From Escherichia coli (GTDB lineage Bacteria; Pseudomonadota; Gammaproteobacteria; Enterobacterales; Enterobacteriaceae): a stretch of DNA of 64,000 nt. Made by a program: the position numbers and the translations under genes. Below the pieces are notes generated by a model that worked only from the letters and a program-made list of their open reading frames with translations, searched no databases and was not told the DNA's origin. The stretch lies in assembly GCF_045037415.1 (NCBI RefSeq), contig NZ_CP173438.1, one strand, 5' to 3'. Shown piece by piece: positions 63,364 to 64,000 of the stretch; the first letter of the stretch is position 1, and each line of letters opens with the position of its first letter.

Positions 63364-63641
63364 GAAAAGGCATTTACACAGAATCCTAAACAGGTTCCGA
63401 CATTCTTCACTCATACTAAACATCTTGTCACTTGACGCAGGGCTGAAAGTTCTACAACAACGGTATACCAATATGATATTGGTTTACTAAATTTTTTGGG
63501 GATCCATCAGGGAATTTCTCCCTATATTTCCAGACTCCTGTTATCATTTAACCCATTACTGATCCGCTGCCACATATATACCTGCGGCGAGCGATAACCT
63601 AGAGCTATGCTGCATTGTAATGTTCGATCGCTACTGCATGG

Positions 63642-64000
63642 TTATGCAATGCCGTCATTAACATCTGGCTTGGGCATGAACACGATGTAGTCACGCTTTA
63701 TCGTTTTCACGAAGCTCTCTGCTATTTTGTTACTCTCCGGACTCCGCACCGCCGTGTTCTTCGATTCAAGTCCCAACATCCGAGCGGACAGGCGTGTTTC
63801 ATTAGCCCGGTAGCATGAACCATTATCTGTCAGCCACTCCACTGGAGACGCCGGAAGCTCGTTGCCGAAGCGGCGTTCCACCGCTCCTGGCATGACGTCC
63901 TGTGCTGTTTCACTGTTGAAGCCGCCGGTAGTGACCGCCCAGTGCATCACCCCGGCAACAAGGGCGCGTGCGCTATCCACTTTTTGCACGTCCATATTCA
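63642..64000 (-). mobile_element. IS3-family (IS2-like) transposase OrfB fragment, continuing beyond the window
   Basis: ...[58 protein letters not shown] closely resembles the IS2 InsD integrase core; the C-terminus diverges after KPD, suggesting truncation. Confidence 0.6.

Follow-up and report, generated by a model that had tools for sequence, protein, structure and literature searches.

IS231A, an IS4-family element, is reported to insert at a GGG(N)5CCC target within the terminal repeats of Tn4430. Target duplications of ~10 bp are typical of the IS4 family, some of whose members show marked target specificity (De Palmenaer et al. 2008, PMC2266710); the ends of ISEc60 start with 5'-CT, as in the IS10 and IS50 subgroups described there. 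In E. coli, decayed copies of IS1414 (IS256 family) with variants of astA are described as the most common state (Ooka et al. 2025, PMC12585946). We analyzed positions 63364-63660 of a 64-kb stretch of E. coli DNA (the window), for which a sequence-only reading had proposed the nested insertion and decay of two IS remnants. This was the right kind of explanation, but three remnants meet here, an ISEc60-like piece having been missed. The interval almost certainly consists of the abutting ends of IS1414, an ISEc60-like element, and an IS2-like element, and every base was assigned to one of them. Rather than a single intact element, all three are defective. Such a nested IS graveyard in an E. coli genomic island is ordinary and of a kind already known.

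Intact reference copies were IS2 of K-12 (L003 2261-3591), ISEc60 (L002 1820-3113), and the 1,315-bp IS1414 of a plasmid (L006 1014-2328). The bounds of ISEc60 were set by its 19-20-bp inverted repeats together with a 10-bp duplication at its site within a phage portal gene, and those of IS1414 by the alignment of its inverted repeats, the right bound being fixed additionally by the point at which matches stop in many independent copies; a target duplication around the intact IS1414 in L006 was looked for and none was evident. Local blastn aligned IS1414 690-1315 with window positions 62809-63397 (+ strand, 88% over 627 columns), ISEc60 1182-1293 with 63398-63509 (+ strand, 92.9%, no gaps), IS2 1328-887 with 63514-63946 (- strand, 86%), and IS2 449-44 with the stretch from 63945 to beyond the window end (~64345; - strand, 91%). 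The terminal G of the ISEc60-like piece at 63510 was read directly. The E-values (~1e-43 for the ISEc60 piece, 1e-148 for IS2, and 0.0 for IS1414) place these matches far above chance. Since the contiguous and non-overlapping matches to intact references cover every base, the interval resolves into 34 bp of the IS1414 end, 113 bp of the ISEc60-like end, and 150 bp of the IS2-like end. Direct reading of the junctions gave ...CCTAAACAGGTTC followed by CGACATTCTTC... at 63397/63398 and ...GGGGATCCATCAG followed by GGAATTTCTCCCTATATTTCC... at 63510/63511. No other piece of the missing halves of IS1414, ISEc60, or IS2 was found elsewhere in the window.

The IS1414 remnant (62809-63397, + strand; reference 690-1315) lacks the 5' 689 bp and carries a 1-bp insertion near 63035 and a 38-bp internal deletion after ~63071. 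Its fragments at 62771-63034 and 63145-63363 matched the mutator-type (Transposase_mut) model PF00872 (E 7.8e-21 and 1.7e-8, respectively) and NF033543, the NCBIfam scores lying below the whole-protein cut-off because only fragments are present. The IS256-like transposase ends at 63363, exactly as had been read, since the ORF 63145-63363 is closed by a TGA at 63361-63363. The 3' non-coding end follows (63364-63397, + strand), and the IS256-family terminal repeat that had been suspected in the gap was located there: 29/30 bases of 63368-63397 are identical to the right inverted repeat (IRR) of the intact 1,315-bp IS1414 (L006). In many genomes with partial matches, the match covered no more than bases 1-35 of the interval, and it falls directly downstream of IS1414 transposase genes. 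The remnant resembles IS1414 in its DNA identity (88%), its right repeat, and its embedded astA ORF. A complete IS1414 would have two terminal repeats and a duplicated target site, whereas here only reference positions 690-1315 are present: positions 1-689, including the left repeat, are missing, and the remainder carries the 38-bp deletion and a frame break. These losses indicate that the remnant cannot transpose, and the astA-bearing copy here is thus immobile.

The 38-aa astA (EAST1) ORF embedded in the remnant (62907-63023, + strand, from the ORF list) is intact and encodes the peptide MPSTQYIRRPTSSYASCIWCATVCASCHGRTTKPSLAT. It is a variant peptide, identical at 35/38 residues to that of the intact plasmid IS1414 (L006) and differing by T for A at residue 11, V for A at residue 23, and K for R at residue 33, with all four cysteines retained. 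The EAST1-family CDS is shorter in some RefSeq records, covering 62958-63023 only. The IS1414 breakpoint at 62809 lies ~50 bp past the stop of a restriction-endonuclease gene, and the ~50 bp in between (62757-62808) matched none of the three IS references, despite which the PGAP IS256-family pseudogene starts at 62771.

The ISEc60-like piece (IS4 family; 63398-63510, + strand) corresponds to the 3' terminal 113 bp of ISEc60 (coordinates 1182-1294). The last 30 codons and the stop occupy 63398-63490, and the right inverted repeat occupies 63492-63510. The claim that the ~300 bp between the two transposase remnants belong to neither coding region did not hold, since 63522-63660 is decayed OrfB in addition to these 30 codons and stop. 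Identity to ISEc60 (L002) was 92.9% over 112 ungapped columns (113 bp with the terminal G), and the right inverted repeat was identical at 17/19 positions. The C-terminal peptide preceding the stop is RHSSLILNILSLDAGLKVLQQRYTNMILVY, compared with RHSPLILNTLSLDAGLKVLQQRYTNMIMVY in ISEc60. The piece thus shares with ISEc60 (the PGAP name, WP_001111632.1) the C-terminal 30 codons, the stop, and the terminal repeat, whereas only 113 of ~1,294 bp are left in the window, the element being cut internally at ISEc60 coordinate 1181/1182. The ISEc60 reference protein matched PF01609 and NF033591; the DDE/YREK catalytic domain (DDE_Tnp_1) is absent from the window piece, which holds the last 30 codons only. 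In partial genome matches, interval bases 35-162 correspond to copies annotated as 'IS4-like element ISEc60 family transposase'. Copies in complete E. coli genomes came no closer than ~93%, so the piece may represent a distinct isoform. It carries no label in RefSeq, and its assignment mends this annotation gap.

The IS2-like element (IS3 family) lies on the - strand. Its right terminal repeat region was placed at 63511-63551 by alignment to K-12 IS2, the 41-bp extent being assumed from IS2, and directly adjoins the ISEc60-like end. Three-frame translation and global alignment to IS2 assigned the decayed C-terminal coding part of OrfB to 63522-63644 (- strand), whose natural stop falls within the terminal repeat (63522-63524); the PGAP 'frameshifted' transposase pseudogene likewise reaches 63522. 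Several small indels scramble OrfB at ~63590-63660 and give rise to a premature TAA at 63642-63644, 3' of which the IS2 homology is back in the same frame (ALGYRSP...LEI and stop) and continues to the terminal repeat at 63511. The readable OrfB tail is ALGYRSPQVYMWQRISNGLNDNRSLEI, followed by the stop. The OrfB fragment had been described as truncated at about 63660 and as diverging from IS2 after KPD. The departure is real and begins right after ...MPKPD, at ~63660, but there is no truncation, as the IS2 homology runs from 63946 to 63514 (position 1328 of 1331).

What is left of OrfB upstream of the indels is a 117-aa ORF (63642-63995, - strand), in which InsD residues ~1-9 are fused to residues ~157-252. 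It matched the IS2 TnpB model NF006918 (E 5.7e-55, profile positions 157-252) and, weakly, the rve integrase core model PF00665. The internal deletion junction lies at 63945-63946, where IS2 450-886 (437 bp) is missing, and the orfA-orfB arrangement with its programmed frameshift region was accordingly not found. Thus, the element resembles K-12 IS2 in its DNA (86-91% identity across both retained parts), its TnpB match, and a recognisable right repeat, whereas it has diverged too far for IS2 itself, lacks positions 450-886 including the orfA/orfB overlap, and has a scrambled OrfB C-terminus. No closer intact relative was found in plasmids and E. coli genomes, the best being IS2 at ~87%. At the tip, CAG of the preceding piece is followed directly by GGAATTTCTCCC, where IS2 has TGGATTTGCCCC. 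The expected terminal base is therefore missing or replaced, as judged against IS2 as the nearest intact match (~87%), from which the element's own terminus may differ, and the conserved terminal dinucleotide was not found at this tip. In SMS-3-5 (L004), which keeps both ends of the IS2-like element, the flanks are CTCAG and TCCGG, with no 5-bp duplication.

In the window lineage, the left terminal 43 bp of the IS2-like element are lost beyond the window (~64346), whereas SMS-3-5 keeps a complete left end. The sequence that follows (L001 7647-7800, ~64346-64500) contains a piece like IS2 64-97 in the opposite orientation (TTTTTAGAGTAGTCATTAGTGAACAGATAATTG), after which come the 5' start of an IS3-family element (MTKK.. 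orfA), which we take to be IS629/IS1203-like, and a psiE fragment.

The target preference of ISEc60 was derived from right ends gathered from viral and metagenome contigs (loci L007-L051), which gave 31 independent flanks. G was present at positions 1-3 in 26-28/31 flanks and C at positions 8-11 in 25-31/31, giving the strong palindromic consensus GGG-N4-CCCC; duplications in the reference copies were 10 bp and once 11 bp. The consensus resembles ISEc60's own subterminal repeat sequence GGGGATCCC (L002 1809-3123 and loci L007-L051). The flank at the ISEc60-like/IS2-like junction, GGAATTTCTCCCTA, scored 7.6 bits, compared with 1.1-17.0 bits (median 11.2) for the true sites in a leave-one-out analysis, and 0.045% of all 14-mers in the window score as high. 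We slightly favor the interpretation that elements of the ISEc60 family have a strong palindromic target preference and that the right tip of IS2-type elements mimics the target, such tips being natural landing pads. If true, this would explain the exact end-to-end abutment of the ISEc60-like and IS2-like elements. A synthetic 80-nt ISEc60 end joined to the authentic IS2 tip was found in 0/5,426 genomes, so that independent insertion of ISEc60 into IS2 tips was not seen to recur in this set. A search confined to mentions of the name found no published target consensus for ISEc60, and the consensus obtained here is a minor but reusable observation. The case is reminiscent of IS231A and Tn4430, in that an IS4-family element with a GGG...CCC palindrome and a duplication of ~10-11 bp would have entered the terminal repeat of another mobile element. 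ISEc60 differs from IS231A in subgroup and host and in its spacer (N4 vs N5), and the analogy is taken as a lead only.

The region 62700-64000 is 100% identical in many E. coli chromosomes, including records labelled O25b:H4/ST131. At least 80% of this 1,301-bp query is present in 177 of the 5,426 complete E. coli genomes, and the 297-bp interval with the same junctions is present in 176, which include a lineage diverged by ~5%. Ten metagenome contigs carry the junction (five of the window type and five of the SMS-3-5 type), and the IS1414 end falls at the same base in all ten. The near-equal counts obtained with the two queries suggest that this is also the case in the complete genomes. The SMS-3-5-type island shares all three junctions and the 437-bp IS2 deletion, and its IS1414 remnant is gapped in a similar way. 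Its identity to the window is 94.1% in the IS1414 piece, 92.9% in the ISEc60-like piece, and 97.5% in the IS2-like piece, and that of the adjacent island DNA is 95.1-96.6%. The shared junctions and deletions in both island lineages indicate that the scar is old, predates their split, and has been inherited. The three junctions can thus serve as a stable marker of this island type. In SMS-3-5, a second IS256-family 5' end (L004 5792-5986) is found beyond an hns-like gene, ~0.8 kb downstream of the IS2-like element (left end L004 5024). With only ~70% identity to IS1414 1-197, it belongs to a different family member and is not the missing half of the IS1414 remnant.

A history that would account for the arrangement starts with the IS2-like element as the first resident. 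The ISEc60-like element would then have inserted one base inside its right tip (GGAATTTCTCCC), at a GGG-N4-CCCC-like site, which predicts the arrangement ...TCCGG-T-GGAATTTCTC-(ISEc60-like element)-GGAATTTCTC-CC... before any loss. That these two events occurred in this order is probable: it is favored by the fit to the target profile, the missing tip base, and the lack of a 5-bp duplication in SMS-3-5. The score of the junction flank, below that of the median true site (7.6 vs 11.2 bits), counts against the order. No ancestral state with an intact ISEc60-like element beside the IS2-like tip was found in the complete genomes or metagenome contigs, which leaves the target-profile argument as the basis for ordering the two right-hand elements. 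An event at the right end of IS1414 would next have joined a complete end of IS1414 to coordinate 1182 of ISEc60, either by insertion into the ISEc60-like element or by an IS1414-mediated adjacent deletion. The meeting of a complete IS1414 end with an internal ISEc60 coordinate indicates that this event broke the ISEc60-like element. A later deletion would have taken the first 689 bp of IS1414 and everything to the left, including the body of the ISEc60-like element and the left one of the two target copies, and point mutations and small indels would have built up afterwards. All of these steps would precede the split of the two island lineages, which now differ by ~3-7%. Overall, a dead, non-functional pile-up of three IS with this history is, with good confidence, the best explanation.

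The order of the two right-hand elements could also be the reverse, with the ISEc60-like element resident and the right end of the IS2-like element transposed exactly against its end. The right repeat of the IS2-like element is essentially complete to the junction, and IS do land beside each other in IS-rich islands. However, the flanks in SMS-3-5 show no 5-bp duplication, the tip lacks the terminal base predicted from IS2, and the match between the IS2-like tip and the ISEc60 target profile would have to be a coincidence of ~1 in 2,000, so that we consider the reversed order unlikely. It is far less probable that the junctions stem from illegitimate or homologous deletions that joined unrelated positions, without transposition. 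Deletions are clear nearby (the 5' truncation of IS1414 at ~62809, the 38 bp in IS1414, and the 437 bp in the IS2-like element), but three breakpoints fall exactly at termini (the last base of the IS1414 IRR, the last base of the ISEc60 IRR, and the IS2-like tip), which random deletions would not yield.

RefSeq annotates only two transposase pseudogenes at the interval, and the divergence of the OrfB protein after KPD would agree with an IS256-like and an IS2-like remnant alone, the latter truncated at ~63660 with ~300 bp in neither. Since the IS2 DNA homology reaches 63514 with the OrfB tail and natural stop present, and 63398-63510 is 93% identical to the ISEc60 end so that all bases are assigned, a two-remnant arrangement is scarcely credible. 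The conservation of the interval in 176 genomes and across two island lineages might alternatively reflect a selected function, such as an outward-reading hybrid promoter or a small RNA. However, the divergence of the interval (92.9-97.5% identity) is no lower than that of its flanks. It contained two promoter-like sites against 1.7 expected, which is the chance level, no terminator-like site, and no Rfam match, and selection is thus a highly implausible explanation. Nothing suggests a function for the interval, which is a non-functional scar. As a fossil of IS traffic in a genomic island of E. coli, it carries little biological weight.

Upstream in the window, core genes (proP through cadBA-cadC) are followed by the island genes. 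An integrase fragment follows cadC (~45.8 kb; L016 45838-45997), where K-12 presumably carries pheU. ARAGORN found no tRNA gene in the 64-kb window, though this integrase fragment is present, and the attachment tRNA of the island must lie outside the window or have been lost. Next to the IS remnants, one extra A at ~62081 (GAGAACC vs GAGACC in NZ_CP015085) divides the Mrr_cat-type restriction-endonuclease gene (61877-62756, + strand) into ORFs at 61877-62119 and 62070-62756; this could be a genuine frameshift or an error of sequencing. In NZ_CP015085, the gene is a single 292-aa CDS.
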